From a virus (lineage: Duplodnaviria > Caudoviricetes), in IMG/VR virus record IMGVR_UViG_3300048998_000066, positions 1-41,951 of that record: a stretch of DNA of 41,951 nucleotides; one strand, given 5' to 3'. This document shows positions 1 to 41,951 of this stretch, one piece after another. Positions within the stretch are counted from its first letter, which is position 1; the number at the start of each line of letters is the position of its first letter. Made by a program: the position numbers and the translations under genes. Under the pieces are notes generated by a model. That model did not search any database. It was not told the DNA's origin and was given only the letters and a program-made list of their open reading frames with translations.

Positions 1-149
1 CGGCAGTACCGGTCGCCCCGATGATATGTACTACCTTTAAAGAAAGTGTGGTGGGGTTCATACCCCAACAGGGGTTTAGTCCTGTCTAGCCTTCCGCCGA
101 AGCAAACGACCTCCGCAAAGATATGAACCCCATAAACAACTATATAGAA
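1..149. repeat. Terminal direct repeat (copy of 41791-41951, lacking 12 bp); circular assembly overlap
   Basis: 1-149 matches 41791-41951 except that GTCTGCCATATG is missing after position 28; the exact match 24-149 = 41826-41951 is 126 bp. Confidence 0.95.
49..131 (-). ncRNA. Candidate structured RNA with a tRNA-like acceptor end (83 nt)
   Basis: Minus strand GGGGTTCATA...TATGAACCCC-ACCA; internal cUUCGg hairpin and ACAGG/CCTGT hairpin; intergenic. Confidence 0.5.
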
Positions 150-152
150 GTA

Positions 153-189
153 TGGCGGGGGAGGTATCTGAGAGCTAGCGCCCTCCCCC
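153..189 (-). ncRNA. Candidate minihelix RNA or hairpin ending in GCCA
   Basis: Minus strand GGGGGAGG-N17-CCTCCCCC-GCCA. Confidence 0.3.
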
Positions 190-224
190 GTTACGCCGTA
201 CGCCTACCTAACCAGGAAGGTCCC

Positions 225-614
225 TCAGATAATGGGCGCCGTAGTCGCCGTCGCCGCCGGGGCCGCGCCGCCGATACCGAAGCGCGCCAGGACACCTTGG
301 AACGCCGTGTACAGGGTTCCGTACTGATGCGGCTGCGCTTCCGGCAGGTTCGCCACGCCGTTTTCGCGCATGGCGACACCGAGCGCATCTTTGACGGCTT
401 GGTTCGAAATGTGCGGCATGATCAGATTGGTAAGCTGATCAGCGGTCACGCTGGATTGAGCGAGGGCCGGTGGGGTGGTCGGTACAAGTGCCGGAGCGGT
501 CACGTCTGGCGCGAGTTGCGAAACCAAAGTGCCGGTAGCATCCGTGGAGCCTTGCAGCAGGGCGTTCGCGGCGGCACGCAGGGCGGCGGCGAGTTGTTGC
601 GCGGTGATCGTCAT
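225..614 (-). CDS. Hypothetical replication-module protein (Ala/Pro linker plus small helical C-terminal domain)
   Basis: 129 aa ORF with AAGGAG RBS; position and size resemble the small proteins found beside DUF2800/DUF2815/PolA modules. Confidence 0.75.
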   Translation of the reverse strand: MTITAQQLAAALRAAANALLQGSTDATGTLVSQLAPDVTAPALVPTTPPALAQSSVTADQLTNLIMPHISNQAVKDALGVAMRENGVANLPEAQPHQYGTLYTAFQGVLARFGIGGAAPAATATTAPII

Positions 615-2837
615 TTACATATCTCCTTTAAAGTCTCTAGGTAGGGAGTACCCAGCCCGGCCCTGCACGATCAAGTTTTCAAACTTCATTGTGGTCAGTA
701 CCTGCGATATGCGTGAGCGGGATACATTGGGAAGTACCGACCCAAATTCGATTTGGGTCATGTACGGGTGCCGTTCAAGAAGCTTTAAGATAGCCGCCCG
801 AACATCTTGTTTCGCAGCCGGGAGCCATCCACCCCGTTCCGCGTCAAACGCCATGTCAAGTTCGAAGTCGTGCGGCACGTCGCGACCGGACAGCAGCAGC
901 TTGCGCTCCTCGCTTTCTTGCTGAATGCCGCGTTTGCCTTTGATACTCATAACGCCGTCAACGGAGCCGGTAATGCCGGCCGTGCCAGAGGCGTCCTCCA
1001 TGAAGTCGGCGCTTTCTTGCGATGCTTGACCTTTTTTCTCGTGGTGTACGATTAGCACGCAAACCTCACGCGCCGCCGCCATCCGAGTAATCGGCATCAT
1101 CTGATCCACGTCGCGCTGATACACGTCGCGATTATTCGATTGGTCGCGGAAGTGCGCGTACGTATCGATAATGATAAGGCGGGTTGAGGGATACATGTCT
1201 AGAAACCTTTCCAGAGCGTCAACGCCGGCTTGACCGCGCGGAAAAGCGTTATATGCCCGCTCCGCTTCTTCAGGGTTTGAAATGTACTCACGTCCAGTAG
1301 TCGGGCTGATATCAACTCCTCCCGTCCAGTATCGGAAACCTGATAGGTCAGGTGGATTAAGTTCCAGGGTTTGGAGAAGCTTAATACGTGCCTTGAGGCG
1401 GCGTTCGTTGTCTTCCAGACCGAGAAAAAGTACGTCCCCTTGATTGCACTTCCAATCGAGAAACTTTCGCCCGCCGCAAACGGCAAGGGCCAGTTGCAGC
1501 GCAAGGAAGGTTTTGCGCATCTTGGGTCGGGCCGCGAGAAGTATGGTGCCGGTTGGGAGTACATTGGGGATTACCCATTTTGGTTCTTTAAAGGTGCGTT
1601 TCTGTAGATCGGCCATAGAAGGGACGCGCCGGAAATCGTAAACCGGCTGCGTCGGTGTTGCACCAGGGAGTGTAGAGAGATCGCGGGTTCCGTCAAGCCC
1701 CACGCTCGATAAAATATCGAACTCCGAGAGTGGGACCTTTAAAGTATCGGCTAGGAGCCTAGCAGCTTTCGCCTTATCGCCGCCGGTAGTGAACTCTGCC
1801 ACAAGCGCGACAGGAGTACGTCGCCCCTCTGTCGCGTCACCCTGATCAGAAATGCCGAAGTACTTGATCCCGAGCGGTGGCGGGTGAATGGTAAGGTCTT
1901 CCTCGTAGTCAAGACCGAGATCGGCGCTCGCCACGCGAAAACCTTCTTTATACTCCCGCGCTGACGGGAAATAAACAGGTACCCATTCCTTAACACGTTC
2001 CAGCGCGTGACGATTGAGGCCACGGTATAGTTTCTCGTCATCAGGATACTCGCTCTTGCTTTTTGTGCCGCTACGTACCGTACTCAAAGCGCCTTGTGGG
2101 TGATACTTTAAATTAGTTATGTTGAACGCGACAATCTCAGCCAAAGTAAGTTTACGTCGAATGAACGCATCGGCGAGCATATGCGCCTTCCGATGGGGTC
2201 GAGTTGGTATGTTGTCGCCCTTTCTAGCCCAAGTACCGGGCACGCGGAAGATGCGGGCGGCGTTGAAACACGTTGTATCGACTTCGCAACCCAATGCCTT
2301 GAAGCGTCCATTAAGTGTTTTGAGGAATGTCGCGATAGCATCCCGTGCTTCCTCTGTGTTGGGCTCGTCCATCTCGTATAGCAGATGACAGCCGTTGCCG
2401 GATACGTTCTGGTAGGGCAGTGGCCAGCCGTACTCAAACTCAAGCATGTTCTTGACGATACAGCCAACTTTAAAGGCGTTCTCTAATTCTTCCTGTGTTG
2501 AACTAATCCCGCTCGGACGTATGGGGTCAATATCGATCAACAACCAACGGCGGCGCAGTATGTGATTATCCATCGTCGTGAGCGTTGCCCACGGGGATAT
2601 GCGATTGTATGAACGCGCAGCCAGATCGGGCGCGACGGGGTTGGGAGTGAAATATATGCCCGCGTAGCTGTCTTGCAAACCAGCTATGGCCGTGGCGGCG
2701 TGCACGGGGTCATTGAAGTACCCGGCGTCAATGCGCTTTTTGTTATGATGCAAGAGCCGTACTTCGAATACTTGTCCCGGTTCTACGAACGTCGAGAACG
2801 CGTACTCTAACTCTGCATAGTCGTGCTGTGATTGCAT
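615..2837 (-). CDS. Primase-helicase (N-terminal primase-polymerase-like domain, C-terminal RepA/AAA_25 helicase)
   Basis: LIDID, SGNGCHLLY and ARIFRVPGT primase-like motifs; Walker A-like ARPKMRKT, Walker B LIIIDT, IVHHEKK, SGTAGITGSVD; start taken at MQSQHD. Confidence 0.85.
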   Translation of the reverse strand: MQSQHDYAELEYAFSTFVEPGQVFEVRLLHHNKKRIDAGYFNDPVHAATAIAGLQDSYAGIYFTPNPVAPDLAARSYNRISPWATLTTMDNHILRRRWLLIDIDPIRPSGISSTQEELENAFKVGCIVKNMLEFEYGWPLPYQNVSGNGCHLLYEMDEPNTEEARDAIATFLKTLNGRFKALGCEVDTTCFNAARIFRVPGTWARKGDNIPTRPHRKAHMLADAFIRRKLTLAEIVAFNITNLKYHPQGALSTVRSGTKSKSEYPDDEKLYRGLNRHALERVKEWVPVYFPSAREYKEGFRVASADLGLDYEEDLTIHPPPLGIKYFGISDQGDATEGRRTPVALVAEFTTGGDKAKAARLLADTLKVPLSEFDILSSVGLDGTRDLSTLPGATPTQPVYDFRRVPSMADLQKRTFKEPKWVIPNVLPTGTILLAARPKMRKTFLALQLALAVCGGRKFLDWKCNQGDVLFLGLEDNERRLKARIKLLQTLELNPPDLSGFRYWTGGVDISPTTGREYISNPEEAERAYNAFPRGQAGVDALERFLDMYPSTRLIIIDTYAHFRDQSNNRDVYQRDVDQMMPITRMAAAREVCVLIVHHEKKGQASQESADFMEDASGTAGITGSVDGVMSIKGKRGIQQESEERKLLLSGRDVPHDFELDMAFDAERGGWLPAAKQDVRAAILKLLERHPYMTQIEFGSVLPNVSRSRISQVLTTMKFENLIVQGRAGYSLPRDFKGDM

Positions 2838-2894
2838 CCCCGACCCGACTTCACCCCTAGACCAGGGGGCCACCCCGATCTCTGCCGATCCCAG

Positions 2895-2924
2895 GGGCTA
2901 AGGTGCTTCGGGGGAGGCGTCAAG
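2895..2924 (-). promoter_or_regulatory. Sigma70-type promoter upstream of primase-helicase
   Basis: CTTGACG-17-TAGCCC; shares the spacer element CGAAGCACC with the promoter at 3062-3091. Confidence 0.5.
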
Positions 2925-2962
2925 CCGGGCCGTAGAGGGGGCCTGTGGACGCCTTGAGTGAC

Positions 2963-3001
2963 AAAAGGCCCCGGAGGTAGCCCGAGGGCGCTCCGGGGCC
3001 T
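2963..3001 (-). terminator. Rho-independent terminator
   Basis: GGCCCCGGAG/CTCCGGGGCC stem followed by TTTT on the minus strand. Confidence 0.75.
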
Positions 3002-3056
3002 CAGTGAGCCCGGCTAAGGCTCAGGGGTCAGGTCGTCAGCGGCAGGGCTGTGACGA
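2963..3056 (-). ncRNA. Candidate three-hairpin small RNA
   Basis: Lies between the promoter at 3062-3091 and the terminator; hairpins TCGTCA/TGACGA and TGAGCC/GGCTCA; no ORF. Confidence 0.4.
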
Positions 3057-3061
3057 AACCT

Positions 3062-3091
3062 CACCTAGGGTGCTTCGCTAGGGGGGTCAAG
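3062..3091 (-). promoter_or_regulatory. Sigma70-type promoter
   Basis: CTTGACC-17-TAGGTG with the CGAAGCACC spacer element. Confidence 0.5.
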
Positions 3092-3208
3092 CCATGTCGG
3101 GTCCATCCACGTCATGGACAGATGCCAGTGTTTTTTATACTTCGACCAGTCAAGGTTCAACCAGCCTACGCGTACTGACCATCCGTCACTGTGTACTTTA
3201 AAGTACAT
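3065..3208 (-). CDS. Small Trp-rich hypothetical protein (47 aa, MYFKVHSDGW...)
   Basis: Hand-translated; starts 2 nt after the upstream stop; below the ORF track cutoff. Confidence 0.5.
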   Translation of the reverse strand: MYFKVHSDGWSVRVGWLNLDWSKYKKHWHLSMTWMDPTWLDPPSEAP

Positions 3209-3209
3209 G

Positions 3210-3407
3210 TCAGATCAGCCAGAGCGCTACGTACTTCCGCGCCGCTGTTTCGCTTTCGAACTCTACCTCTGTGTGCTTCCATGTTGCGAAGTTCATTACT
3301 CGCACTCCCCAGAAGTCGGGTTCTTCAAGGGCACGTAGGACTACCCACATACCGGAGGGCGAAAGTGTGCCTTCATATTCATGCACTTTAAAGTTAGCGC
3401 GGGTCAT
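3210..3407 (-). CDS. Hypothetical protein
   Basis: Part of ORF 3210-3491; start chosen at MTRANF, overlapping the upstream stop; start uncertain. Confidence 0.55.
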   Translation of the reverse strand: MTRANFKVHEYEGTLSPSGMWVVLRALEEPDFWGVRVMNFATWKHTEVEFESETAARKYVALWLI

Positions 3408-3576
3408 CGCCGATGCACACGGCCCCAACCCGTCCGTTTTCAAAATGCCGCTGTCCTGCTTCCCACCATACCTGTTCAATAGGAAGTACATTGGCCTCTA
3501 CGACAAGAACAACCGGACGGTCGCCGTACGTCGTTTCGATCTCTTGAAGCTTGAGTATCAGAGAATGCAAGCGCAT
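3394..3576 (-). CDS. Hypothetical protein (60 aa)
   Basis: AAAGG RBS; tightly packed; typical small phage protein pattern LILKLQE...YGDRPV. Confidence 0.65.
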   Translation of the reverse strand: MRLHSLILKLQEIETTYGDRPVVLVVEANVLPIEQVWWEAGQRHFENGRVGAVCIGDDPR

Positions 3577-3588
3577 GTGCTTATACCT

Positions 3589-4034: not shown

Positions 4035-4064
4035 ATTATGTTCCTTTGCAGGTGAGAGGGATAA

Positions 4065-4139: not shown

Positions 4140-4149
4140 GTAAAGTACT

Positions 4150-4457: not shown

Positions 4458-5111
4458 TTACAGGATCGAGGGGAGCTCGCTGGCCTTGCCGCCCAGGGCA
4501 GTGATGCCCAGCATGGCCTTGGCCGGATTGACGTACTTGGTATCGCGCATCTTTTCCAGATCAGCGCGGTTCGCACCTTGCTCGACCTTAGCGTCGATGA
4601 GCGCGTTCAGGTACGCAACGCCGTCCGCGCCGACTTCCTTCTTGGCAGACAGGAAGGTGAACTTCGGATCGGCAGCCTTGCGGCTGGCAAAGACTTCGCG
4701 AACAACCACGTCGGTGACGGTGGCAATCAGCGGGTCCTTCGTCTTGCGCGGCTTCGGTTCCGCGCCGACCTTGCGGACGTTCCCGGCGGTCAGATCGGCA
4801 ATGGCGCGGGTGTACGCGTCTTCGTAATCCGGCGCGGCGGGGCGGTCGCCTTCCGGCTTCGGCACGGCGGTTTGCAGCGCGTCGGCCTTCGTGGCTTCGT
4901 CGTACGCCTTCCAGGCGACGACCTTCTCGTCACGCTCGTATCGCGTGTGCACGCCGTTGAGGCGGTTCGCGATGTAGTTGCGCACGGCGCTCTTGAGGAA
5001 GTCCAGGCGCGTGTCGGCCGGGATCAGGGCGCAGTCGTACAGCCGCTTGCCTTCGAGATTGGGAAACTCGAATTCGGCGACGGAAGCGACGGGGGCGGGG
5101 GCTTCAGACAT
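4458..5111 (-). CDS. Hypothetical protein (217 aa), probably highly expressed
   Basis: AAAGGA RBS, own promoter and terminator, strongly GC3-biased codons like the capsid gene. Confidence 0.85.
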   Translation of the reverse strand: MSEAPAPVASVAEFEFPNLEGKRLYDCALIPADTRLDFLKSAVRNYIANRLNGVHTRYERDEKVVAWKAYDEATKADALQTAVPKPEGDRPAAPDYEDAYTRAIADLTAGNVRKVGAEPKPRKTKDPLIATVTDVVVREVFASRKAADPKFTFLSAKKEVGADGVAYLNALIDAKVEQGANRADLEKMRDTKYVNPAKAMLGITALGGKASELPSIL

Positions 5112-5187: not shown

Positions 5188-5634
5188 CCCTTGAGGTAAA
5201 TTTTCTGAATTATTTCGCTCGGGTACTTTAAAGGGCATAGGCATGGCGGTTGTCCATTCATCGCCATGGCGTGCCATGTGGATAACCGTTGTCTTGGTGG
5301 TGGGGTCGTACTCGATCCGCAACACCGGCCTAGCGTTCTCTGGCGGGGAGACAAAAGGCAGGCCGGCGGCTTTAAGTCCTGCCAGCACTTGACTAAGCGC
5401 CCGGTATGCGCTCGCGACGAAATCGCCGAACGCAGCGCTCGTTTTGGAGAACGTGACCGTGAAGTCATCCGTCACCACACGGTAAACCACGCGAACCATG
5501 GTAGCGCGGGAGTTGAAATAGACTTCGGGATGCAAGCGAGTACCGGCTATAGTCGCACGCCAGTACTTGCGATCAATGACGCCATTGAACCCGTTGACCA
5601 GTTCGTCGGCGCGCATGAGGTTAGTCTGCGCCAT
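5173..5634 (-). CDS. Hypothetical protein (153 aa)
   Basis: AAAAGG RBS; C-terminus QGLDLF. Confidence 0.75.
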   Translation of the reverse strand: MAQTNLMRADELVNGFNGVIDRKYWRATIAGTRLHPEVYFNSRATMVRVVYRVVTDDFTVTFSKTSAAFGDFVASAYRALSQVLAGLKAAGLPFVSPPENARPVLRIEYDPTTKTTVIHMARHGDEWTTAMPMPFKVPERNNSENLPQGLDLF

Positions 5635-5800
5635 TTGGGAACGCCTTTTCTAGTTCTTCTATGGCGAGTTGAAAACCGCGTTCGCCTATAGAGGCGACGG
5701 TAATCATGTACGGAACACGAGCGGTGAGAGCGTCTAAACGCGCCCGCGTCTCGGGCTTCAACCACAACTGTACGTGATTGGCTTTGTCACGACGCGTCAC
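5621..5800 (-). CDS. Ribbon-helix-helix-like DNA-binding protein (59 aa)
   Basis: Hand-translated from GTG: MTRRDKANHVQLWLKPETRARLDALTARVPYMITVASIGERGFQLAIEELEKAFPNGAD; alternating beta strand followed by two helices. Confidence 0.6.
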   Translation of the reverse strand: MTRRDKANHVQLWLKPETRARLDALTARVPYMITVASIGERGFQLAIEELEKAFPNGAD

Positions 5801-7248: not shown

Positions 7249-8097
7249 TTAGAGCTCCTGTGTTTTGAGTGCGTTTTCGATGACGCGGGAGACAAATTCC
7301 AAACCCTTCGCGGCGGTCGGCGCGTGTGTGCTCGCCTCTTTCATGCCGTTAAGGATGACTGCGCCCGGCGGGCAATTGATCAGGTCGCTAAGGCGCGCGT
7401 TAGCGGCGCTCCCGTAGTTCGATGCGGGCGGAACCGGCATACGCTCGATAGCGGCGAAGCCAAGGCGGCGCAGCATAGCCGGATGACCGATAGCGAACGC
7501 GACCACGGCTAGGTCAAGCGGCTGGTCCGCTTTCTTGATCGTAATCGCTTGCACGGTACGCCAGCCACTAACCGCGTACGTAGCAACTAGCACGCCAATC
7601 AGCTCAACGCGCGTTCCGTCCGTCTCAAGCTGGTTCACGTACTGTGCACACGCGACACCAAAATTAGCCATGCAATCCGCGTCTGTGTGCGCGTTGGCGT
7701 CAAGTGACACAGCCAGGGTTAGAACGCGCCCCGCGCCCGTCTCTGCCTTGTCCGCGTGTCTGATCATGCTATCGGGTGCACCCGCGCAAAAGCGCGGAAC
7801 GTGCGGGCGGAAGCCGTACACGTCCGTACGCGTGTCAGGCTGGGGGGACATAGCCGGGAACGTCTTAAGCGCGTCCTGCGCCCTTGTAGCGCCTTCTAGC
7901 CACCCATTACGCGCCATGTTCACAGCGGCGTCGTAGCCCGCGTTCAGGTCCCAACGCTTGGACATTGGTTGAGTACGAGCAACATTGTACGCGGAGCCCC
8001 AAACCTTGGGCGCGTCCTTAATCCAACCGGCGAACTCGCCGAGGCTATCGAAGCTGTACAAGGCGGTTTTCTTGGCAGGGTCAATGCGCGTTTGCAT
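7249..8097 (-). CDS. vWA-like (CobT-type) partner of a MoxR AAA+ ATPase
   Basis: VYGFRPHVPRFCAGAPDSM and IKKADQPLDLAVVAFAIGHPAMLRRLGF motifs; immediately downstream of the AAA gene; start at MQTRID. Confidence 0.65.
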   Translation of the reverse strand: MQTRIDPAKKTALYSFDSLGEFAGWIKDAPKVWGSAYNVARTQPMSKRWDLNAGYDAAVNMARNGWLEGATRAQDALKTFPAMSPQPDTRTDVYGFRPHVPRFCAGAPDSMIRHADKAETGAGRVLTLAVSLDANAHTDADCMANFGVACAQYVNQLETDGTRVELIGVLVATYAVSGWRTVQAITIKKADQPLDLAVVAFAIGHPAMLRRLGFAAIERMPVPPASNYGSAANARLSDLINCPPGAVILNGMKEASTHAPTAAKGLEFVSRVIENALKTQEL

Positions 8098-8110: not shown

Positions 8111-9478
8111 TTAAAGTGCTTGTTCGATTTGGCGCACGGTGTCCGCGTCCAAACCCTTGTACACAACTAGACCCGCAACAGTCGTGCGGTCAATCCCTTG
8201 GGCTAGCAGCTTGCACCCGTCGTACGTGGCGCGCGGCGTGACAAGGTGCGAGAGGCCGCGTTCGGCGACCACGGCGCGCACGCGTTGCACGTACTTGGCC
8301 CACGACTGATCGGACGCTAGGGCTAGCTCTAGGTCGTCGTCATATCCAAATTCAATGAAGGCGAAACGGTCGATTGACGCGGCGTCCAGTTGATTGCGGC
8401 CCGCGTACTGGCGCGTTGCGCCCGTAAGCTTCGTATTGCCTGCCGCGATACACACAAACTTTTCGTGACGCGGGACCATGCCGTCAGGGAACGGACACAC
8501 GCCGTTCGCAAGCGCCATGTTCAACGCGACCACGGCGGACGGCGCGGACCCGTCCAGTTCGTCAAACAGGAACACGCCACCGTGTTCGTACGCGTCACGG
8601 AATTGCGTCCGTACGGTATCGCCCTTGGCGTCCTTAAAGCCGAGTAGTTGGTACTCGCTTTCCACCTTGGCCGCATAGTACGCCTTCAAGCCGAACGCTT
8701 GGGCGACCTTCTCGGCGAGGGTGGTTTTGCCGCTACCGGCAGGGCCGTACAGGTACACGTTCACGCCAGCCGTGAGCGCCGCCAGCACGAGCGGCGTTTG
8801 CTTGTGGACTAGGCCAAGCGACACGGGCGATGGGGCGTCAGGACGCGTGACTTCAAGGCGCGTGGGCGTGAGCGTTTTCAGGGCCTCTAGGGCGGCCGTG
8901 TGCGCCATGGTCCCCATCTCGGCGCGCATGGCCGCCAGGGACGCCTCCGCCGCGTCTAGAGGCACGCGGGCGATAGCTTCTGACAGTTCATCGTGAACTG
9001 TGCCTATGGCCGTCTGTAGGGGCTCAAGAGCGCCCTCGCGGACTTCCCGCTTGATCAGGTCACGCACGGTGTCCAGCGACGGGCCAGCGGCCTCCGCGGG
9101 GCGCGGCTTAGGCTCCGGTTTAAGATCGGCGTCATAGTACGTCGGTTCGGGCTTAGGTTCCTTGCGTGGCCATGCGGGGTTAGGCCGCGCGGGTACCACG
9201 TCCGGCGTGTCCAGTATGTCACGCGGCGCGTTGTGACGCAGGTTGACCCGTTGGGCAACGCGAGGACCGCCAGCGCCGTCTTTCATCGCGACAAGGTAAA
9301 TACTGATCAGGTCGTTATCGGACGCCTTGCGCGCCGTATCCATCGAAAGGCCGCAAAGCTGGCCCAGTTCCTCAAGCTGATCGCGCAGTGAGGGCGACAG
9401 ATGCAAGCCCGTCGTCAGGCGCGGGGCCGACGCGTGAATGCCGAGAGCCGTGTTCTTGACGTGTGTAGCGCTAGCCAT
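8111..9478 (-). CDS. MoxR/CbbQ/CobS-like AAA+ ATPase
   Basis: GPAGSGKT, FLFDELD, AAGNT, YAGRNQLDAASIDRF, TPRAT. Confidence 0.9.
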   Translation of the reverse strand: MASATHVKNTALGIHASAPRLTTGLHLSPSLRDQLEELGQLCGLSMDTARKASDNDLISIYLVAMKDGAGGPRVAQRVNLRHNAPRDILDTPDVVPARPNPAWPRKEPKPEPTYYDADLKPEPKPRPAEAAGPSLDTVRDLIKREVREGALEPLQTAIGTVHDELSEAIARVPLDAAEASLAAMRAEMGTMAHTAALEALKTLTPTRLEVTRPDAPSPVSLGLVHKQTPLVLAALTAGVNVYLYGPAGSGKTTLAEKVAQAFGLKAYYAAKVESEYQLLGFKDAKGDTVRTQFRDAYEHGGVFLFDELDGSAPSAVVALNMALANGVCPFPDGMVPRHEKFVCIAAGNTKLTGATRQYAGRNQLDAASIDRFAFIEFGYDDDLELALASDQSWAKYVQRVRAVVAERGLSHLVTPRATYDGCKLLAQGIDRTTVAGLVVYKGLDADTVRQIEQAL

Positions 9479-9522: not shown

Positions 9523-10137
9523 CTAGGCGGCTTCGTCCGTCGCTTCCAGTTCCTCGCACACGAGCTCGCCGTCACACGAGGGAACCGGGCAACCCAAGTA
9601 CGCGTGCGGCTGGATATGCTTGCGAGTGACGCGCGCGAGCCAGCCACAAACCGGGCACTCGACCTTCAGGAGCGCCGTTGTCTGTTTCGGGCGTGCGGAC
9701 GATATGCCGCCCTCCTGAAGCGCGCCGTACGGCATTGCGCCAAGCTTGGAGATGACGGGGAGCGCCCAACCGTACCACGCGTCAGTCGCCGTAGGGGCGG
9801 TCATACGGCCCGAGTACCCAAGCGACGTGGCGGCACGCTTGTACTCCGGCCCACGGCCCTTGTTGAGCCCGATAGCCGCGTGAATAAGTTGCTGCGTCAG
9901 CACGTCGCAAACGCGCGTGGGGTCCGCCAGCGTGGGCTTAATGAAGATTTCGAAGTACCCATCTTCGCTCGCATCGCTAGACCAGCATTCGCCGATCTTC
10001 GAGCCCTTGGAGCCGCGCGACGTGAAGCCAACGGCAACGCGTACGTTCGCGGGAAGGCTGGCGTTGGCGGCTTCGAAGCGGGGCCGCGCGGCGTCAATGA
10101 ACGCCTCTAGGTATTCTTCGCGTGTGGCGTAGGTCAT
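9523..10137 (-). CDS. SprT-like protein with degenerate active site and C-terminal zinc ribbon
   Basis: IGECW...EIFIKP...DVLTQQLIHAAIG...GRGPEY, then CPVC...CPVPSC. Confidence 0.75.
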   Translation of the reverse strand: MTYATREEYLEAFIDAARPRFEAANASLPANVRVAVGFTSRGSKGSKIGECWSSDASEDGYFEIFIKPTLADPTRVCDVLTQQLIHAAIGLNKGRGPEYKRAATSLGYSGRMTAPTATDAWYGWALPVISKLGAMPYGALQEGGISSARPKQTTALLKVECPVCGWLARVTRKHIQPHAYLGCPVPSCDGELVCEELEATDEAA

Positions 10138-10149: not shown

Positions 10150-10353
10150 TTACGAGTTGATATAAATGTCTTGCGACGACGTATGCTGTAAAATGGTATA
10201 GGTCCCGAGTAAGTTTTTATATGCTTGGGCGTAATTGCCTTCGCCGTCCGTCCACATACCGTTGTGGCCCGTAGTGACATATTCATGATCGATAAGAGAC
10301 TTGCGAGCATCTTCCGTCGTGCGGAATGTGTTGTATTTGTATGGCAGTTGCAT
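10150..10353 (-). CDS. Hypothetical protein (67 aa)
   Basis: AAAGGA RBS. Confidence 0.7.
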   Translation of the reverse strand: MQLPYKYNTFRTTEDARKSLIDHEYVTTGHNGMWTDGEGNYAQAYKNLLGTYTILQHTSSQDIYINS

Positions 10354-10386
10354 GTGTGTGTCCTTTAAAGGGATTACGATACGAGG

Positions 10387-10572
10387 TTAGCGCGCAAGCG
10401 GCTCATAGTACGTGTTGGCTTCCCGAAGTTGTGCCAACTTGAATTCGAGTTCGGCGACCGTGTAGTGACCGCTGCAGAGAATGGCGAAACCGCCATCGTC
10501 GCAAATGTAATCGGCCCCGTCTTGGTCGTTAAACGTCGTGCCGGTGTGACCCGTGGCTGTATCGAAGTCCAT
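10387..10572 (-). CDS. Hypothetical protein
   Basis: GAGGT RBS before MDFDTA; first gene after the promoter at 10623-10651. Confidence 0.65.
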   Translation of the reverse strand: MDFDTATGHTGTTFNDQDGADYICDDGGFAILCSGHYTVAELEFKLAQLREANTYYEPLAR

Positions 10573-10622
10573 GTGCCTGATTACCTCTGTAAATTTGCCT
10601 TGCGGCGTCGGGCCGCCCCTTC

Positions 10623-10651
10623 CCTTTAAAGCAATATGCGGCCTCGTCAAG
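10623..10651 (-). promoter_or_regulatory. Early promoter whose -10 region overlaps a CTTTAAAG box
   Basis: CTTGACG-16-TAAAGG. Confidence 0.45.
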
Positions 10652-11005
10652 CGCCGTGTTTATACACCTTATAATAGGGGACTGATTTCACACCCGCGCC
10701 ATCCGCATTTTTGTACGTACTTTGTTCCGTATTGCGAGTAATTCCTAAATCGACGCTAGGGCCATTTTAAGCGCCGTACGAGCCCCATTGAATTTGGATA
10801 CGGAATGCATCACGCGCCCCGCAAAACCGCTGTACGCGCATCCTAAGGCGTTCTAGGGCCATGTGCTTTTGATGCAACATGAGTATACGTGAAGTAATTT
10901 ATTCTTGCGCCTTACTTCATGTATACTATGTCAAGCGCTATGTTGCTCAAATGTACTCAAGCATACTTGCGCTCTACTCAAGTGTTACTAGGTACAATAC
11001 TTGCG

Positions 11006-11464
11006 CTATAGTATGTCAGGTAATTTACCCATGTCATATTGCGGACCGTCCCGTCGCTTCCGCGTGATCATGCTTAGCCTCGTTTCCACGTCTGTCTCAC
11101 GCGCGTCGATGTAGTGACACAGGACGCTCACGCGCACCCAGCGGTCCGCCATCTCGGCCTCCCGAGCCTGTTGGATCACGCGCGCATGTAGCTGAGGGTT
11201 AGTGTTGTACGTGAGCGCGCCGTTCGCGCGTGACATGTCCCATACCGGCGTGAGCCCATCGGGCTCTACTAGCCACGTATCAAGCGCGATCAGTTTCGTG
11301 CCGCCTTCTCGCCACTCAAGCTGTAAGTACTCGCGCTTGCCGAAGATGAACACGTACGCGTCTAGGTGCAGAATACTAGGGCGCGTTAATGTATCGAATA
11401 ATTTACCAGCTAGCCAGGGGCGGTTGAGTAAGGCGGGCCTTCTATAGCTGCTAGGGTTTGCCAT
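11006..11464 (-). CDS. Hypothetical protein (152 aa)
   Basis: AAAAGGA RBS; ends LPDIL. Confidence 0.7.
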   Translation of the reverse strand: MANPSSYRRPALLNRPWLAGKLFDTLTRPSILHLDAYVFIFGKREYLQLEWREGGTKLIALDTWLVEPDGLTPVWDMSRANGALTYNTNPQLHARVIQQAREAEMADRWVRVSVLCHYIDARETDVETRLSMITRKRRDGPQYDMGKLPDIL

Positions 11465-12395
11465 GGGGCGTTGGTCCTTTTTCAGTCACTTAGCTACAGT
11501 CGTGCCGAGGGGTAAAAAACGGCGCTCGGGAGCCTTTGATTTTATTGACTTTTCGAGGGTATCTCCCCGAAAGGCCTTATATGTACACGACAACACACAC
11601 TCAAGCAACGCTACAGGCATATACAACTATATAAGGGGTTGTTTGCTATATAGATATATATGTACTTATATAGACAAGTGGTTTCAACAAAAGTAATGTA
11701 CTAAAGTAATGTACTTTACAGCGTAAAAGTCGAGTATTTGTCGGCATTTCAGTTTTATACCCACATGTTTGGCTAGAATACTGGCACACATCTAGGTATA
11801 AAAGTGTAACCTGGCACAAACTTACTCGATTTACCGCGTAGTAGTTTATTAAAGTAATTTACTTCAGTTATATAGGCGGGCAGGCAGAGTAATATACTAT
11901 AGTAATATACTTAACTAATATACTTACACGCATATTCAAGTACTAAATCACTTTAAAGCTATCCCCTAGTGTTAGTATAATACTTAAATTAAAACTTATA
12001 CTTAAGGTTACTAATACTCAGTACCTTTAAAGCGTTTTAGTTTTGTAAACTAGGCCACCGGGTCGGCGGGCAGGCGGGGTACTGTTAAATTAGGGTACCA
12101 CCGCGCTAAATTTTTGTAGTTTTCGTTTAGTATACTTAGTAATTTACTTTAGAGTAATTTTTATAGTTTTCATTTAGTACGTTTAGTAATTTACTTTAGC
12201 ATAGTTTTTATTTGACCTTAGTACATTTAGTAATTTACTTTCATATAATACTCATAGGAAATCGGGCCACGTTTAAAGTCAAAAAGGCCCTTGACGACCG
12301 CGAAAAATCAATGTCCCCATGCGCCACTGTCGCGTTTTCGCCGTAGGCGAAAGCGTGCCGCCGATAGCCTTAGGGGCTCGAAAAGGAACACGAAA
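11465..12395. other. AT-rich non-coding divergence region; candidate packaging site, genome end or origin
   Basis: No credible ORF; multiple AGTAAT[TGA]TACT boxes; separates leftward early genes from rightward late genes. Confidence 0.6.
12111..12242. repeat. Three imperfect ~45-bp tandem repeats
   Basis: Each unit ends TTAGTA-NNN-TTAGTAATTTACTTT. Confidence 0.85.
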
Positions 12396-13562
12396 ATGAA
12401 GACTTTCCTTCGGGGGCTGGCCGCGCCCTTTATCGCCTTGCTGGCCCTGAGTATCGCAGTACCCGCGTACGCCCAAGTTATTGTACCTACGTACACGGAA
12501 GCCGCCACAGGGAATGTTAAGCAAGGCATTGGCGTAACTTCGTTAGGTATGGACGGAGTTGCGGCGACTTCTACAAATGTTGTAAGTACATCTGGCGCAA
12601 CACTATCTGCGGGAGTACTTAATTTCACCGCAAACTCGCAATTTGCAGTTATTGACGTTACCGGATATAGGTCAGTAAGTGTACTGCCAAGCGGGACATT
12701 TACCGCCGGATATCAGTTTCAATGGAGTAATACTTCTACGGGCGCATGGACCGCAGGTGCTGCAACGGACCCGGGAAACGTCGGTCTATCGTCGGATAGT
12801 ATTGGGCCATTCACGTCAAATGTTAATCTACTTAATATGAATGTGCAAGCAAAGTACTTGCGTATTTTAATTACCAATTATACGTCCGGCACTGTGCAAT
12901 TGACGCCCGTACTAAACAGCGGGAATTTGCCCGTACGTAGCGTGTTGGCTACTGTAGCTGGACAGACGGCAGTGGGTTCGTCACCTACCGGCAATCCAGT
13001 GCAAATTGGCGGCGTTAGCAGTTCCAGTTCAAATACAGTTCGATATGCTACAGACAATGGAGGTAATTTTCCGGTTACAGGCAGCGTTGCCTCGGGCGTG
13101 TCGGATAGCGGAGCCCCCGTAAAGACGGGCTGCGTAGTGAATAATACACTCCCCACATTCACTAACAGTCAACGTGCGGATTGTCAGGCATCGCCCAAGG
13201 GAGCGCAACTGGTCTCGCTTATTTCTGATACCTCCGCCAACGTAGCTATCGTTCCCGTAGTTTCGTCTGCTGTCGAGAGTGGGCACGTACTTAAGGCCTC
13301 TGCGGGAAATTTGTATCGTATTCGCGTAACGACTGGAGGCACGGCCGGATATGTGGGCGTATCGAACGCTACGACTGTACCGGCTGACGGTGCGGTAACT
13401 CCGCAACTTTGCCAAGCCGTTGCGGCAAATTCGACAGTCGAGATTGACCATTCGGTAATTCCTGATAGGTACTCGACCGGTATCAGCGCGTGGTTTTCCT
13501 CAACTGGCTGCTTTACTAAGACAGCCTCGGCTACGGCCATGATTGAAGGTTTCGTACAATGA
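12396..13562 (+). CDS. Ser/Thr/Gly-rich beta-structured virion-like protein with N-terminal signal peptide
   Basis: AAAGGA RBS before MKTFLRGLAAPFIALLALSIAVPAYA-Q; C-terminal VLKASAGNLY...GISAWFSSTG resembles phage decoration/spike domains. Confidence 0.75.
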   Translation: MKTFLRGLAAPFIALLALSIAVPAYAQVIVPTYTEAATGNVKQGIGVTSLGMDGVAATSTNVVSTSGATLSAGVLNFTANSQFAVIDVTGYRSVSVLPSGTFTAGYQFQWSNTSTGAWTAGAATDPGNVGLSSDSIGPFTSNVNLLNMNVQAKYLRILITNYTSGTVQLTPVLNSGNLPVRSVLATVAGQTAVGSSPTGNPVQIGGVSSSSSNTVRYATDNGGNFPVTGSVASGVSDSGAPVKTGCVVNNTLPTFTNSQRADCQASPKGAQLVSLISDTSANVAIVPVVSSAVESGHVLKASAGNLYRIRVTTGGTAGYVGVSNATTVPADGAVTPQLCQAVAANSTVEIDHSVIPDRYSTGISAWFSSTGCFTKTASATAMIEGFVQ

Positions 13563-13880: not shown

Positions 13881-14390
13881 ATGCGCAACGAGACAACCCT
13901 CAACGCCTTAGCCACCGAACTTCAGCGGAATTGCGGCGACACGCTGGCCGCATGTCGGGCCGTGGGTGTGTCGCTGATCTTCGTTTCGCAGTGGCGGAAA
14001 GATGACAAGAAGGTCAATGAGGCGCTTACTGAAGCCGAGCGCGTGGGTACGCAAGGACTTGTAAGCGCTGCGATCCAGCGGGCCGTACACGGCATCGACA
14101 AAGACGTATACTATAAAGGCGAAGTGTGCGGTCAACAGCGCGAATACTCTGATGGACTTTTGCAAACGCTTTTAAAGGCAAAAGTAGCGGAATTCGCCAA
14201 AGACGGCGAGAACGGCGGCTTACAGGTTCACGTACAAGTGGCTAATATCATGCCGCGTGCAGCGAACTACGCTGATTGGTTGGCCATGAAGGATCAAACC
14301 GTAAATCGCGCACTGCCTGCGCCGGACGATAGTAGTGTAATTGAGGCGGAGTACGTCGAGATTAATGCGTTTCAGGGGATCGAGTTATGA
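13881..14390 (+). CDS. terS: Terminase small subunit
   Basis: HTH-like ACRAVGVS...QWRK, RAVHG..KDVYYKGE, EYSDGLL..LLKA; upstream of TerL. Confidence 0.8.
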   Translation: MRNETTLNALATELQRNCGDTLAACRAVGVSLIFVSQWRKDDKKVNEALTEAERVGTQGLVSAAIQRAVHGIDKDVYYKGEVCGQQREYSDGLLQTLLKAKVAEFAKDGENGGLQVHVQVANIMPRAANYADWLAMKDQTVNRALPAPDDSSVIEAEYVEINAFQGIEL

Positions 14391-20180: not shown

Positions 20181-20210
20181 CAACCCATTTGCTCTGGAAG
20201 GAGCTTTAAA

Positions 20211-23331: not shown

Positions 23332-24903
23332 ATGGCACAAGCCCGTAAAGTTTCACGCGGTAAACGCGCCCTGCCAACTACGTTGCCAGCCCCGGTCGGG
23401 GGATTAAACGGGCGCGATGCACTCGGAGAACAAGGCGAAAAAGACGCTTTCCGTTTGGAAAATTGGGTACCGCGCGGTACGTCCGTTGATACGCGTGGCG
23501 GATCGCTAACGTACGCAACTGGAATTGGTGGCGCGGTTGAGAGTGTAGAAGTTTATACAGGCGGCACTACCCCGAAAATGCTCGCATTCGGAGCGGGCGG
23601 TATATATAACGTAACTGCGGGTGGCGCAGTAGGTGCAGCCCTCTTAGCGAGCCGCGTAAGTAATAAAGTTACGACGGCCATGTTCTCTAACGCCGGAAGC
23701 CAATTCCTGCTTATATACTCTGGCGCTGATCAACCGCTTTCGTACGACGGCACGACCTTGACGGGATTGGCGATTACGGGCCTTACCGGGTCGCAAAACA
23801 CTCTATTCTCTCCTGTGGCCTTTAAAGGTCGTATGTTTCTAGCGCAGGTCAACCAGCTTGGGTTCTATTACCTAACAGTCGGCGCGATCCAGGGTGCGGC
23901 CTCATTCTTCGACTTGCAACAGCAGTGCTTGCGTGGCGGTTCGATGGCGGTCATTACCTCGTTCTCGCAAGATACCGGACAGGGGCCGCAAGATTACGCA
24001 TTGTTCGTCACGACCGAAGGCGAGTACTTGGTATACGGCGGTACGGACCCGTCGAATGCCGCAACATGGGCGCTAGTGGCTAGATACTACGGCCCCGCGC
24101 CAATCGGCAAAAAGGGCTCGTTCAAATTCCGAGGCGACGCGTACTTCATTACTATCGAAGGGATCATCTCATTTACTGAAATCCGTAACGGCGGCGAGGA
24201 AGATCATAACACGGACTATCTGACGGATAAATTAGGAAGTATCTTTAAAGACACTGTGAAATATCAGGATACGCATGGCTGGTCGGCCCTGGTTTACCCG
24301 CGCGGTTCCATGGTACTGGTCAATGTACCGCTTACGGCCTCCGAAACCGGCCCGTATACGCAATTCGTACTTTGCACCGTTGGCAAAGACGCGTGGACCC
24401 AATTCATGGGCTGGAACGCTATTTGCTGGACGTTGTTCAATGGGCGAGCGTACTACGGTACGTTCGACGGCAAAGTCATACTGGCCGACGAAGGTTATAC
24501 CGACAACGGCGCGTCCATTAACTGTATTTGTCGTCAAGCGTGGAATACATTTGATGATCAAAACGGCATGGGCGAGGCGGACAAGCAATTCCATCTCGTG
24601 ACGTTCGCCATGGCGGCGGACGGCGCACCGTCGATCTCAGCCAACCTTAACGTCAATTATGAGGACAGTGAGCCGCAGTCTACAACCGTACTAACACCTA
24701 GCGCGGGGGCTGATTGGGATACTGCTGATTGGGATACTGCTGATTGGGCCGGCGGGGCGGTGACGCAAAATATATCTGTGCCAGTCGGTAAGTTCGGATA
24801 CATTGCATCAATATGGATGAAAGCCGTATCTGTTGCCGCGACTATAAAGTGGTACGGCTCACGTATAGTATTGCAAAAAACAAATGGAGTACTTTTACAA
24901 TGA
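23332..24903 (+). CDS. Tail nozzle / DNA stabilisation protein (P22 gp10-like)
   Basis: PAPVGGLNGRD N-terminus, beta-rich body, WD repeat near the C-terminus; start MAQARK. Confidence 0.8.
   Translation: MAQARKVSRGKRALPTTLPAPVGGLNGRDALGEQGEKDAFRLENWVPRGTSVDTRGGSLTYATGIGGAVESVEVYTGGTTPKMLAFGAGGIYNVTAGGAVGAALLASRVSNKVTTAMFSNAGSQFLLIYSGADQPLSYDGTTLTGLAITGLTGSQNTLFSPVAFKGRMFLAQVNQLGFYYLTVGAIQGAASFFDLQQQCLRGGSMAVITSFSQDTGQGPQDYALFVTTEGEYLVYGGTDPSNAATWALVARYYGPAPIGKKGSFKFRGDAYFITIEGIISFTEIRNGGEEDHNTDYLTDKLGSIFKDTVKYQDTHGWSALVYPRGSMVLVNVPLTASETGPYTQFVLCTVGKDAWTQFMGWNAICWTLFNGRAYYGTFDGKVILADEGYTDNGASINCICRQAWNTFDDQNGMGEADKQFHLVTFAMAADGAPSISANLNVNYEDSEPQSTTVLTPSAGADWDTADWDTADWAGGAVTQNISVPVGKFGYIASIWMKAVSVAATIKWYGSRIVLQKTNGVLLQ
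24709..24748 (+). repeat. Perfect 15-bp tandem repeat (x2.7) encoding ADWDT
   Basis: GCTGATTGGGATACT repeated. Confidence 0.9.
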
Positions 24904-36731: not shown

Positions 36732-36732
36732 G

Positions 36733-39065: not shown

Positions 39066-39089
39066 TAGTACGGCCCTTACAGGTACGGC

Positions 39090-39788
39090 TTACAGGATAT
39101 TGCCGAGCGGTGCGCCGCCCGCCACGCCCGTTGCCAGAGGATCAAACTGCGATTTGGCGTCAGGACGCCCGCCGCCACCGATGCGCTCCCACGGACCGCC
39201 GGGGGCGATCTGGATATTGTTGAGCCGCTTGGAGATGAAACGCTTACCGGAATACTCGGTACCGAACATGATACCCGACACGCGGCACATGGCCCCGGCA
39301 TACATATCTGTCGGCATGGCGTCGTTGTTGTAGGCATCGATCAGACCGGGCGCGCCCGCGTACGTAATCTGCCCGTTCGGGTGTCGCGTCGGTTTCGCCG
39401 ACTGCTTGAAATTCATGTAAACGCCGCCGAACAAGTACTCGCGTTTCTTCGTGTTGTGTTCGGGATTGTCGCCATCCATCAGGAACGGCTGAAGGTTAAG
39501 CCATGCGTCGTTGCCGGCATCCGGCCCCCACGCTTCGTCGCGCACTTGCGCGGCCAGCGTGCGCATAGGTACTAGCGTCGTATCGCGTTCGGCCTTGGGC
39601 CACCAGAGCGTGACTTTAAAGTCGGCAACTTGAATGCCGTCCTTGTCGAGTACCGGGTCCTGCGAGTTTTCCTTCGTTTGGAGTTGCGGCTTGTCGTGGT
39701 ACGAATGCACCGCCTTGCCGATGGGGGAAATAAATTCCAAAAATTTCGGTTTGCCACCATTGGCGGCATAGCATGGGGTAATAGTCAT
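39090..39788 (-). CDS. ssDNA-binding protein (DUF2815 / Enc34-like)
   Basis: DGD, YAGAMCRV, ISKRLNNIQ, GGG motifs; start MTITP after AAAGGA. Confidence 0.8.
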   Translation of the reverse strand: MTITPCYAANGGKPKFLEFISPIGKAVHSYHDKPQLQTKENSQDPVLDKDGIQVADFKVTLWWPKAERDTTLVPMRTLAAQVRDEAWGPDAGNDAWLNLQPFLMDGDNPEHNTKKREYLFGGVYMNFKQSAKPTRHPNGQITYAGAPGLIDAYNNDAMPTDMYAGAMCRVSGIMFGTEYSGKRFISKRLNNIQIAPGGPWERIGGGGRPDAKSQFDPLATGVAGGAPLGNIL

Positions 39789-39801
39789 AACCTGTTTTCC
39801 T

Positions 39802-41028
39802 TTAAAGAATGTTTGGAACGTTAGAAGACGTTGCGGGGCTAAGTACGCCAAACTCACTGCCCCGTTTGTGAGCCGGTCGTCCATCGATGGCCCGTTCAAG
39901 TGTAAGGCCAGCGGAGGTTTCTGCTATGTATCTGCCTACTACGTTATCGTAAAGTTGTTTCCAGCCGCCGCGCGGCAGGCTGTGAACACGGGCGTATTGC
40001 TTAAGTACGTCCTCAATATGCTTGGGCGTACCGAGATGCTTTAAAATACGCTCATCGCTGAACTGCAAACCACCGAGGTTCATAAACCCAAGTTCGGGAA
40101 ATAGGCGCTGCGCCCATTCCTCGCCCAGCATTTCCCATACCGCTGCTGTCAGCCTTTCGGCGTTGCGTACTTCGCGGTTACGGCGGCCTTTCACGACTTT
40201 GTATCCCTCGATCTTGCGGTCCATATTCATAATACGGCGCATGGCCTCGGATCGCAGTTCGGTACGGTACCCGGCAAGTTCGTCAGAGGCGTCCAGGGCT
40301 TTTGATAGGTCCGCGTCGGACATGGCCTTAAGCTCGCTGGCGTGCCAGCCTAGCGACAAGTCCTCTTGCGTGTAGGTGCGGAAAGCCTCGCACGCGCCTC
40401 TGTGATTGCAGTACGACGCTTTGCAATGGTGGCCCGCCTCGCAGTGATCGGGGTTTTCCATTGACCAGCGCAGGCGGGCGCGGTGCGTTTCAACGTCCGC
40501 GTGCGTGGGCTCCCAAAAGCGCAGCGGACCCTCTATGTGATCGAAGTTCGGTTGATGCGCGCCAATGCGATAGTATGGGCGCGGACCGTACTTGTCGATA
40601 GCGCCACACAAGTATGTCATCATTTGTTCGTTGTGCGGTACGTTTACGACGATATAGCCACTTTTGTGATCAACTATCTCTAGCCATTCCGGCGAGACAA
40701 GTATGATATCAGCAGTGCCAAATTCACCCGTTTCGGTTATGTCTAGTTGCTGTTCGACGTACAGCTTAGTATCCGGCCCAAGTTCTTTAAAGCGCTTGAC
40801 TACGTAATCGTATAAATCCTGTAGCGCCTCAGCGGCGTTGGGATCACACGTCGGAGGAAGCGTGCCGAACTGAAGTAAGTCCTCCATAAGCTTGTGCCAA
40901 AGATCGCCCTTAGCCGACGCCTCGGTTTCGACATTGTCGTACAGAGACGTAACCGTTGCGGAGAACGGGCATGACAACCAGCGCTTGGCGGCGCTAGGTG
41001 GCCTGTTTTTTGCGTGCGCGGTTGCCAT
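39802..41028 (-). CDS. DUF2800 / Cas4-like PD-(D/E)xK exonuclease
   Basis: HA..PPSAAKRWLSCP, FGTAD, VDHKSG, NEQMMTY, C..C..C cluster, GYKVVKGR. Confidence 0.88.
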   Translation of the reverse strand: MATAHAKNRPPSAAKRWLSCPFSATVTSLYDNVETEASAKGDLWHKLMEDLLQFGTLPPTCDPNAAEALQDLYDYVVKRFKELGPDTKLYVEQQLDITETGEFGTADIILVSPEWLEIVDHKSGYIVVNVPHNEQMMTYLCGAIDKYGPRPYYRIGAHQPNFDHIEGPLRFWEPTHADVETHRARLRWSMENPDHCEAGHHCKASYCNHRGACEAFRTYTQEDLSLGWHASELKAMSDADLSKALDASDELAGYRTELRSEAMRRIMNMDRKIEGYKVVKGRRNREVRNAERLTAAVWEMLGEEWAQRLFPELGFMNLGGLQFSDERILKHLGTPKHIEDVLKQYARVHSLPRGGWKQLYDNVVGRYIAETSAGLTLERAIDGRPAHKRGSEFGVLSPATSSNVPNIL

Positions 41029-41041
41029 GCCCTTTAGGTAC

Positions 41042-41404
41042 CTAGACGATAGGCGCGTCAGTGGGGTCGGCCTGTTCTAGGCCGGTTTGCTGCGTAATGT
41101 CGCCTTGCTGCAACGGATGCACTTCGATACCCGTTGCGGCGTTCTCCGCTGTGGGGTCGCTGGGCGCGGCTTGCAAGCGGGCTACATTGCGATTAATGCG
41201 GGCCGTCAGGATTTTCGAGTAACCATGCATGAAGTTGTATTGATCTTGCAGCAAGTCCCGGTCGCCCGCCGGAAGTTCGGTGTACTCGTTACTATCAAGG
41301 AACGTACGGATCTTCATTAAACGCGCGTCGAGTTCGTTTGCTTCGACGAGCAGACGCTCGTACCAGCCAAGCGGAGTGTTAGTGGCAGTCGTTTCGATAT
41401 CCAT
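41042..41404 (-). CDS. crAss001_48-like helical-hairpin protein
   Basis: ERLLVEANELDARLMKIRTFL...DRDLLQDQYNFMHGYSKILTARI. Confidence 0.75.
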   Translation of the reverse strand: MDIETTATNTPLGWYERLLVEANELDARLMKIRTFLDSNEYTELPAGDRDLLQDQYNFMHGYSKILTARINRNVARLQAAPSDPTAENAATGIEVHPLQQGDITQQTGLEQADPTDAPIV

Positions 41405-41424
41405 TTTTAAAGTCCTTTCAAGTA

Positions 41425-41508
41425 TTAAAGTTCGAACTCATTGTCGGCGTCTTCGAATTCGTCGTCGGCGTCTTCGAATTCGTCGCAAGTGCAATCTTCG
41501 TCTTCCAT
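41425..41508 (-). CDS. Tiny acidic peptide (27 aa) with internal repeat
   Basis: MEDEDCTCDEFEDADDEFEDADNEFEL; starts 2 nt after the upstream stop, GGAGG upstream. Confidence 0.55.
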   Translation of the reverse strand: MEDEDCTCDEFEDADDEFEDADNEFEL

Positions 41509-41509
41509 C

Positions 41510-41827
41510 TTAGCTATCCATCCTCCCACTGATTAAGGGTTTCTTACCGAGAGCGCCGGCCCCTTGGGGCAGTACGCCTTTACGCGCTTCATCGAACCGC
41601 GCCATGCGGATCGTGAGTAGGTGCAAGTACGTTTGCATCTGTTCCCGTTGCAGTACTAGCAGATGCTTGTCCAGCACGTCGAGGGTTTCGAACCCGGGAG
41701 TACCGGTGAATTGGGTAATTGCCGCGATGCGCTTGGACAGGTCGTCGCCCTCCTTGCGTATGGCGTTGATCAATTGCTGGTAGGGTATCCCGGCAGTACC
41801 GGTCGCCCCGATGATATGGTCTGCCAT
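41510..41827 (-). CDS. Second crAss001_48-like protein
   Basis: KEGDDLSKRIAAITQF...FETLDVLDKHLLVLQREQMQTYLHLLTIRM; start MADHII after AAAGGT. Confidence 0.75.
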   Translation of the reverse strand: MADHIIGATGTAGIPYQQLINAIRKEGDDLSKRIAAITQFTGTPGFETLDVLDKHLLVLQREQMQTYLHLLTIRMARFDEARKGVLPQGAGALGKKPLISGRMDS

Positions 41828-41951
41828 ATGTACTACCTTTAAAGAAAGTGTGGTGGGGTTCATACCCCAACAGGGGTTTAGTCCTGTCTAGCCTTCCGCC
41901 GAAGCAAACGACCTCCGCAAAGATATGAACCCCATAAACAACTATATAGAA
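41791..41951. repeat. Terminal direct repeat (copy of 1-149 plus 12 bp)
   Basis: Direct sequence comparison with the window start. Confidence 0.95.

Follow-up and report, generated by a model that had tools for sequence, protein, structure and literature searches.

A strongly selected, iterated palindrome in an uncultured soil podophage and its relatives is the core of an 18-bp dyad that is very probably read by a protein

The DNA analysed here, in the following the window, comprises all 41,951 nucleotides of IMG/VR virus record IMGVR_UViG_3300048998_000066. It is the near-complete genome (41.8 kb, 55% GC) of an uncultured soil podophage with a terminal overlap (24-149 equals 41826-41951), whose capsid protein has its best cultured match at 55%. 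The minus strand carries the early and replication genes, namely those for a primase-helicase, an AAA+ ATPase, an SNF2 helicase, a VRR-NUC-type nuclease, DNA polymerase A, a single-strand DNA-binding protein and an exonuclease, and the plus strand those for terminase, portal, capsid, tail and lysis proteins; neither an integrase nor a methyltransferase was found among the 59 window proteins scanned. An earlier reading of the letters (the original prediction) had described an 8-bp palindrome, CTTTAAAG, as a selected site that recurs throughout this genome. In our analysis, the true element is an 18-bp dyad, A-N4-CTTTAAAG-N4-T, with this palindrome at its centre.

All 42 positions listed in the original prediction hold an exact CTTTAAAG. 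Two cores had been missed (23820 and 41837), which raises the total to 44, or to 43 unique ones, since the core at 41837 copies site 35 within the terminal overlap. This is far above chance, as had been claimed, with 0.6 copies expected under a Markov-2 model. The elements are:

1..41951: 43 unique CTTTAAAG cores, comprising the 42 listed and 23820; every one forms the middle of an 18-bp dyad, A-N4-CTTTAAAG-N4-T
23820..23827: missed core, inside the tail gene 23335-24903, context AFKG
41837..41844: duplicate core, equal to site 35, in the terminal overlap
3192..3207: single, perfect 16-bp palindrome, intergenic; present as described, but not the consensus
626..633, minus strand: core placed as a Shine-Dalgarno sequence, likewise at 3587, 6012, 8109, 10363 and 39800

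In 300 per-gene synonymous shuffles, the codon-preserving check proposed with the original prediction, the 31 coding sites compare with 2.5 ± 1.5 and a maximum of 7. A codon or dipeptide artefact is ruled out by these shuffles, by the use of synonymous opportunities (31 of 46 in the window) and by the control dipeptides described below. The sites indeed occupy different reading frames (17 xLK, 14 xFKx) as well as five Leu-stop contexts (3587, 5801, 6024, 8109 and 39800), and 31 of the 43 cores lie wholly within genes, with every module represented. Selection has even altered amino acids, because contexts that permit the word number 46 where residue shuffling yields 19.6 ± 4.4 (2.3-fold), and they are more than two-fold enriched in every large module. 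The near-miss TTTAAA sites fit the same picture: a C or G flank is kept in 62 of the 63 unique TTTAAA. When seven genomes are pooled, changes of the outer base of the core are tolerated (51-75 versus 4-6 expected), whereas those of the innermost T are depleted (0-6 versus 7-12). The density of sites is 1.5-2.4 times higher in the early and replication half in all seven genomes. What did not stand is the supposedly even distribution, given a coefficient of variation of 0.82 (P=0.12 when compared with random placement, and P between 0.03 and 0.96 in the seven genomes); neither regular spacing nor helical phasing of site pairs was found. An apparent exclusion from the capsid gene amounts to one aligned position, not to seven events.

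The outer part of the dyad emerged when flanks were scored at those positions that leave a synonymous choice (214 sites in 11 genomes). An A at -5 (T at +5) occurs 103 times versus 47 expected (z 9.8), a signal that stands on either side alone (z 7.2 left, 6.6 right) and in the window genome alone (16 versus 6), and that is absent from 2766 control dipeptides (571 versus 564). Altogether, 35 of the 43 window cores possess an A at -5 or a T at +5. Closer to the core, there is less C than expected at -3 and a mild preference for T at -2, and nothing comparable is seen farther outward. The GTAC extension of the original consensus is not borne out: GTACTTTAAAGTAC is present once, G at -3 is exactly at expectation (91 versus 91), and T at -2 reaches merely 67 versus 47. 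The A at -5 is preserved in lineages that use a variant word (172 versus 92). No complementarity between the -i and +i flanks was found beyond chance, and half-sites pair freely, such that asymmetric variants are found facing either way with respect to genes and genome, without a consistent strand bias (two nominal P values of about 0.02-0.04 among many tests).

A protein of two-fold symmetry that binds double-stranded DNA would be expected to produce such a symmetric pattern, and we consider it very probable that the dyad is read by a protein and is under selection as such. A hairpin or cruciform is rejected, as the left and right flanks do not co-vary, and so is an RNA signal or -1 frameshift site, as both frames are used (17 versus 14) with no consistent strand bias. 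Likewise, a repressor operator, which would be confined to a few promoter sites, is ruled out by the 31 of 43 sites that lie inside genes in all modules, and a promoter element by the finding of 3 promoter-like sites versus 2.9 in shuffles of 10300-12400. The notion of a selected genome-wide site without a methylase is thus supported, and among the roles offered for it, protein binding fits best, given the symmetric 18-bp footprint and the freely pairing half-sites, while RNA cleavage is disfavoured because of the symmetry of the site. No methylase was found among 59 proteins searched against PHROGs or 30 searched against Pfam, all of them phage proteins, and the only methyltransferase label in the window is a weak side match on the SNF2 helicase. 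Sites at stop/ribosome-binding-site junctions are present, as had been noted; we read them as co-option, because CTTTAAAGG, through its AAAGG half, doubles as a Shine-Dalgarno sequence. CTTTAAAGG is located 4-13 bases before an ATG at three to eight sites per genome, and the core at 20204 overlaps the capsid GTG start.

The word is a trait of the phage family. It occurs in all 18 loci with a capsid identity of at least 80% (0.36-1.47 per kb), and no word is found in 55 of the 58 loci with a capsid identity of 60% or less; distant relatives of the primase and of the terminase small subunit (TerS) carry no such word either. Whole relatives possess 32-58 copies (G001-G006), 24 (G016) or 50 (G024), and the fraction of opportunities used ranges from 20/34 to 42/50 in six relatives, with 0/24 in G007. 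Individual sites turn over: of 98 positions aligned across seven genomes, 72 are occupied in a single genome. Trees of nine genes resolve three clades, and since CTTTAAAG is found in all three, it is likely ancestral to the family. Sister lineages have TTAA-centred words of their own: ATTTAAAT in G017 and L191, CATTAATA in G018 and G023, YMTTAAKR in G007 (81 copies, with no CTTTAAAG) and CATTAAAG in G026, which never pairs two CTTT halves. G026, L209 and G007 avoid TTTAAA-containing pairs altogether. G016 and its kin (L113, L214-L216) have a second repeated word, ACACTTAT/TAAGTGTA, with 17-18 copies versus about 1 expected, and the motif-less lineage (G021:C1:24759, 25811, 31896 and 32763, G022, L231) contains words that resemble DnaA boxes, some at matching places upstream of TerS.

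The host of the window phage is likely sphingomonad-like, because the genome nearly lacks GANTC (1 versus 121 expected) and its endolysin shares 68% identity with Novosphingobium genes. GANTC is the alphaproteobacterial CcrM site, and its scarcity suggests avoidance of this site. Among 101 genomes of the presumed host family, CTTTAAAG has a median of 3 copies (range 0-78, seven genomes with none) and exceeds the reversed-word control in only two. The word does not mirror the likely host, being rare in this family. The window also strongly avoids GGCGCC, CGATCG, CCGCGG, GACGTC and GGGCCC in addition to GANTC, which points to methylation or restriction pressure by the host.

Phages usually purge palindromes; in this family, by contrast, the palindrome is favoured to an extent that has altered protein sequences. 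The element is of the highly iterated palindrome type, but it is not HIP1; it has an operator-like footprint and is real, strongly selected and family-wide. DNA uptake sequences, known as DUS in Neisseria and USS in Pasteurellaceae, also occur about once per kb, lie in genes, reshape protein sequence and are read as self; they are, however, non-palindromic host words read at uptake, whereas the word described here is palindromic and rare in the host family. The likeness to HIP1 (GCGATCGC) drawn in the original prediction holds for the pattern and for nothing beyond it. HIP1 and alternate cyanobacterial iterated palindromes (PMC4390886, PMC5861425) are, like our word, 8 bp long, found about once per gene and placed within coding frames; in both cases, codon use does not account for the selection, changes of the outer base are tolerated and some lineages have other words instead. 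By contrast, HIP1 is a GC-rich word of cyanobacterial chromosomes, while ours is an AT-rich word with a TTAA core in a phage genome, part of an 18-bp dyad with a distal contact, without regular spacing, nearly absent from the likely host and unaccompanied by any methyltransferase that we found. Its spacing is random-like, but periods of 18-94 kb, as given for HIP sequences in PMC5861425, could not show up within 42 kb. The GATC/GGATCC excess of subcluster B3 mycobacteriophages (PMC4841201) is similarly a lineage-specific, genome-wide palindrome with no known reader, although it is about 4-fold as opposed to 12-fold over the codon-preserving null here, where the dyad is longer, the words form a graded family and candidate genes co-vary or are co-lost with them. 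The pac and pac-like sites of P22 (PMC11260489) resemble our case in that a short signal would separate phage from host DNA and a helix-turn-helix (HTH)-bearing TerS is present, but our phage has 43 palindromic copies without orientation bias in place of one directional site, and the word is missing from a relative whose TerS residues are identical. NrS-1 (PMC8718748) has an 8-nt recognition word and an AEP primpol-helicase; its word, however, lacks symmetry and is recognised in single-stranded DNA, and the primase of our phage does not track the dyad word. Our literature search, which covered neither supplementary tables nor most subscription papers, returned no report of the word or of the family trait, and the sole paper found with both CTTTAAAG and 'phage' concerns a plasmid.

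The following genes bear on the question of what reads the dyad:

7249..8097, minus strand: DUF7192 protein (PF23822; vWA-like by inspection), early operon; not in motif-less G021; candidate part of the reader
8111..9478, minus strand: AAA+ ATPase (AAA_5; phrog_249, CobS/MoxR-like) with a divergent helical N-terminal domain; not in G021
9523..10137, minus strand: SprT-like metalloprotease with a Cys-rich tail; HExxH degenerate here; in neither G021 nor motif-bearing G016
13881..14390, plus strand: TerS, HTH at the N terminus; co-variation of Q37 (before W38) and of T96 with the word type; rival reader
615..2873, minus strand: AEP primase-polymerase fused to an SF4 helicase; winged helix at the C terminus (by inspection); dismissed as reader
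4458..5111, minus strand: universal family protein, mostly helical, without a clear fold match; kept in G021

Our preferred, though tentative, reading is that the word is a self tag, bound by a symmetric protein and tied to the early AAA+ ATPase/DUF7192 module. G021 (42.8 kb, with a continuous early region) has no cores, TTAA at expectation, and not even amino-acid traces of the word (16 versus 12.3 contexts). It has also lost the trio of SprT-like, AAA+ and DUF7192 genes, while other conserved core genes, including TerS, the primase and the 4458 protein, are kept. At least the first trio gene is present in 15 of the 15 motif-bearing loci that reach the trio position; L196, whose contig window stops before it, gives no information. 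We favour the module because it explains this one clean loss as well as the early-half bias, whereas under a TerS-based reading the absence of sites from a genome that shares these residues would need explaining. Among six unrelated phages with a DUF7192 homologue (adjoining AAA+ gene tblastn-confirmed in three), a palindromic hexamer is enriched over the codon null in two, CTTAAG in Faith1 (38 versus 12.4, 3.1-fold) and CCTAGG in Tunturi_4 (29 versus 6.4, 4.5-fold), with one phage intermediate and three showing none; none of four genomes without the pair has a palindromic hexamer at 3-fold and z above 3. This comparison is a hint, not a significant result. Over-represented words scattered at about 1 per kb in such phages are CTTAAG in L309 (Faith1), CCTAGG/ATCCTAG in L310 (Tunturi_4) and CCTGGA(CG) in L308 (P106B). 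The HExxH motif of the SprT-like protein is degenerate in the window, G001 and G017, and intact in most relatives.

Under such a mechanism, a dimeric protein would read the dyad on double-stranded DNA, and every added site would give its own genome copy a small advantage in cis, so that density and not position would be selected. The early AAA+/vWA-like pair, driven by ATP and joined by the SprT-like protease in those phages that have it, might be recruited to tagged DNA and there load or clear proteins, leaving the nearly untagged host DNA aside. DUF7192 could either bind DNA itself or service another bound protein; if the ATPase serviced site-bound TerS, the module and the terminase would be combined in one system. 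Such a remodelling role is proposed by analogy with MoxR/vWA chaperones and with the joint action of SPRTN/Wss1 and p97.

Several observations weigh against the module. Its joint loss in G021 is a single event, and a host or lifestyle shift could have caused both losses. The early-half bias is partly a matter of availability, because opportunity use is alike across modules (0.64-0.78). G016 keeps 24 cores without the SprT-like gene, which is therefore dispensable, and G024 shows no trio despite its 50 cores, although its contig breaks at the expected trio place and the SprT-like gene is present in L198, a close relative; both ends of the broken contig (G024:C1) lie in (GGCT)n tandem arrays at that place. 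Among the unrelated DUF7192 phages, no enriched palindrome was found in ct52p938, CS266P3 and a 50-kb part of EW6, and P106B is intermediate, while some segments without a detected pair show 2.7-2.9-fold palindromes (GGCGCC and CCGCGG in the unrelated primase-bearing phage segments L125, L126, L131 and L134). The N-terminal domain of the ATPase shows little conservation across CTTTAAAG genomes and lacks an atlas match, the residues that track the word best lie in TerS and not in the module, and MoxR/vWA pairs are known as protein chaperones, not as DNA readers.

The last but one of these points leads to a possible, if rather doubtful, alternative, in which TerS reads the dyad as a dispersed, direction-free packaging signal, so that site-rich copies would be packaged more often and host DNA largely excluded. 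By minimum score, T96 (0.88) and Q37 (0.80) of TerS are the two best word-tracking columns among 3663 from 11 genes (14 of 25 core genes were dropped for too few taxa). Q37, in the HTH recognition helix, had first come from a separate post hoc scan and was set as a prediction before new loci were fetched, in which Q goes with CTTTAAAG in 12/13 loci and non-Q in 2/12 (one-sided Fisher about 2e-4, uncorrected for kinship). The tally covers 31 loci of at least 4 kb, 25 of them with a motif; loci under 4 kb and three duplicates were dropped. Even sister genomes differ at this residue, with Q in L115 (CTTTAAAG) and N in G017 (ATTTAAAT). Independent switches are few, however, kinship inflates the Q37 tally, and there are exceptions: CTTTAAAG is accompanied by T in G006 and L212, an AT-type word by Q in L240, and CT by N in L193 (1.3 kb). 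The G021 lineage is devoid of cores although it retains both Q37 and T96. The pac sites that are known occur singly and have a direction, and the ring-shaped TerS offers no simple two-fold axis. In favour of this alternative, P22 terminase works at short pac-like sites with little context (PMC11260489). A profile search with TerS matched no solved structure.

A host protein is an unlikely reader, if only slightly more so. Here, the phage would gather a dimeric host DNA-binding protein as a decoy or helper, and the word would follow changes of host. The GANTC avoidance (1 versus 121) and the endolysin indicate sphingomonad-like hosts, a host shift could account for the joint losses in G021, and the avoidance of TTTAAA pairs in G026, L209 and G007 resembles host restriction. 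Moreover, beyond TerS, no small HTH or ribbon-helix-helix family is conserved in 16 genomes or emerges from a Pfam scan of 99 small open reading frames. On the other hand, the core is missing from 7 of the 101 genomes of the host family and more frequent than the reversed-word control in just 2, G018 and G023 keep the dyad with a much weaker avoidance of GANTC, the word changes between close sisters, and the host itself is only inferred. Okazaki fragments are about 1 kb long, which matches the density of about one site per kb, and it is conceivable, though quite improbable, that these are priming or loading sites for an NrS-1-like primase-helicase, or that another universal phage protein, 4458-5111 for instance, binds them. 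The primase gene does encode an AEP primpol fused to an SF4 helicase, and NrS-1 primpol recognises an 8-nt word (PMC8718748); a single-strand reader, however, would give no dyad, and both the primase and 4458-5111 are kept in motif-less G021. The primase winged helix is rejected as reader, as its recognition helix is identical in L115 and G017, which differ in word, and unrelated to that of the window in G019 and G024, which share its word. Protein 4458-5111 gave no lead either: its model is confident (pLDDT 93) but has no Foldseek match at E<=0.001, the best VIA match (Z 5.7 at a root-mean-square deviation of 12.7) reflects generic helices, and it has neither an atlas match nor a cultured-phage homologue, in searches that did not extend to the viral fold library. 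Most improbable of all is a repair or mutational ratchet that makes the word without function, as modelled for HIP sequences. Site positions turn over, and a methylation-directed ratchet has been proposed for HIP1 (PMC4390886), but there is no methylase among the 59 window proteins, selection reaches nine bases from the axis while spacer bases are free, and amino-acid contexts are enriched in every large module.

Taken in its broadest form, the module reading would amount to phage self-recognition without methylation: an AAA+/DUF7192 machine, possibly with terminase, would read about one 18-bp dyad per kb, word and reader would drift together, and unrelated phages with the pair (cluster L mycobacteriophages with CTTAAG, Tunturi_4 with CCTAGG) would run the same system with words of their own. 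We regard this as speculative and doubtful, but if the link to the module is true, a widespread, unannotated phage gene pair gains a function. Since the word differs among lineages and one lineage has lost it, the family offers a natural experiment for identifying the reader of highly iterated palindromes, which is a question for HIP1 too. It yields a short list of readers and, for TerS, a prediction at the residue level, with cluster L mycobacteriophages as a cultured proxy.

An open reading frame of 59 codons at 5621-5800 (minus strand), ribbon-helix-helix by inspection, has a core directly before its GTG and is private to the window genome; it is rejected as reader, with no homologue in seven relatives and no Pfam match. 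GTAC is 1.7-fold over the codon null in the window (355 versus 208), separately from the core flank, and its excess remains in motif-less G021 (293 versus 157). It is enriched in most close relatives too, but G007 has 0 versus about 100; GTA/TAC-containing words are still enriched there, and a short primase triplet is therefore possible. The divergent intergenic region at 12109-12246 holds three imperfect 47-bp AT-rich direct repeats with AGTAATTTACTT, possibly origin or late-promoter elements. At the genome ends, the copies at 1-35 and 41791-41825 differ by a 12-base insertion right before the exact overlap. Finally, 41042-41404 and 41510-41863 (minus strand) are a neighbouring pair of crAss001_48-family genes, and relatives carry Tad2-like and N4 gp49-like genes within their early or replication regions.

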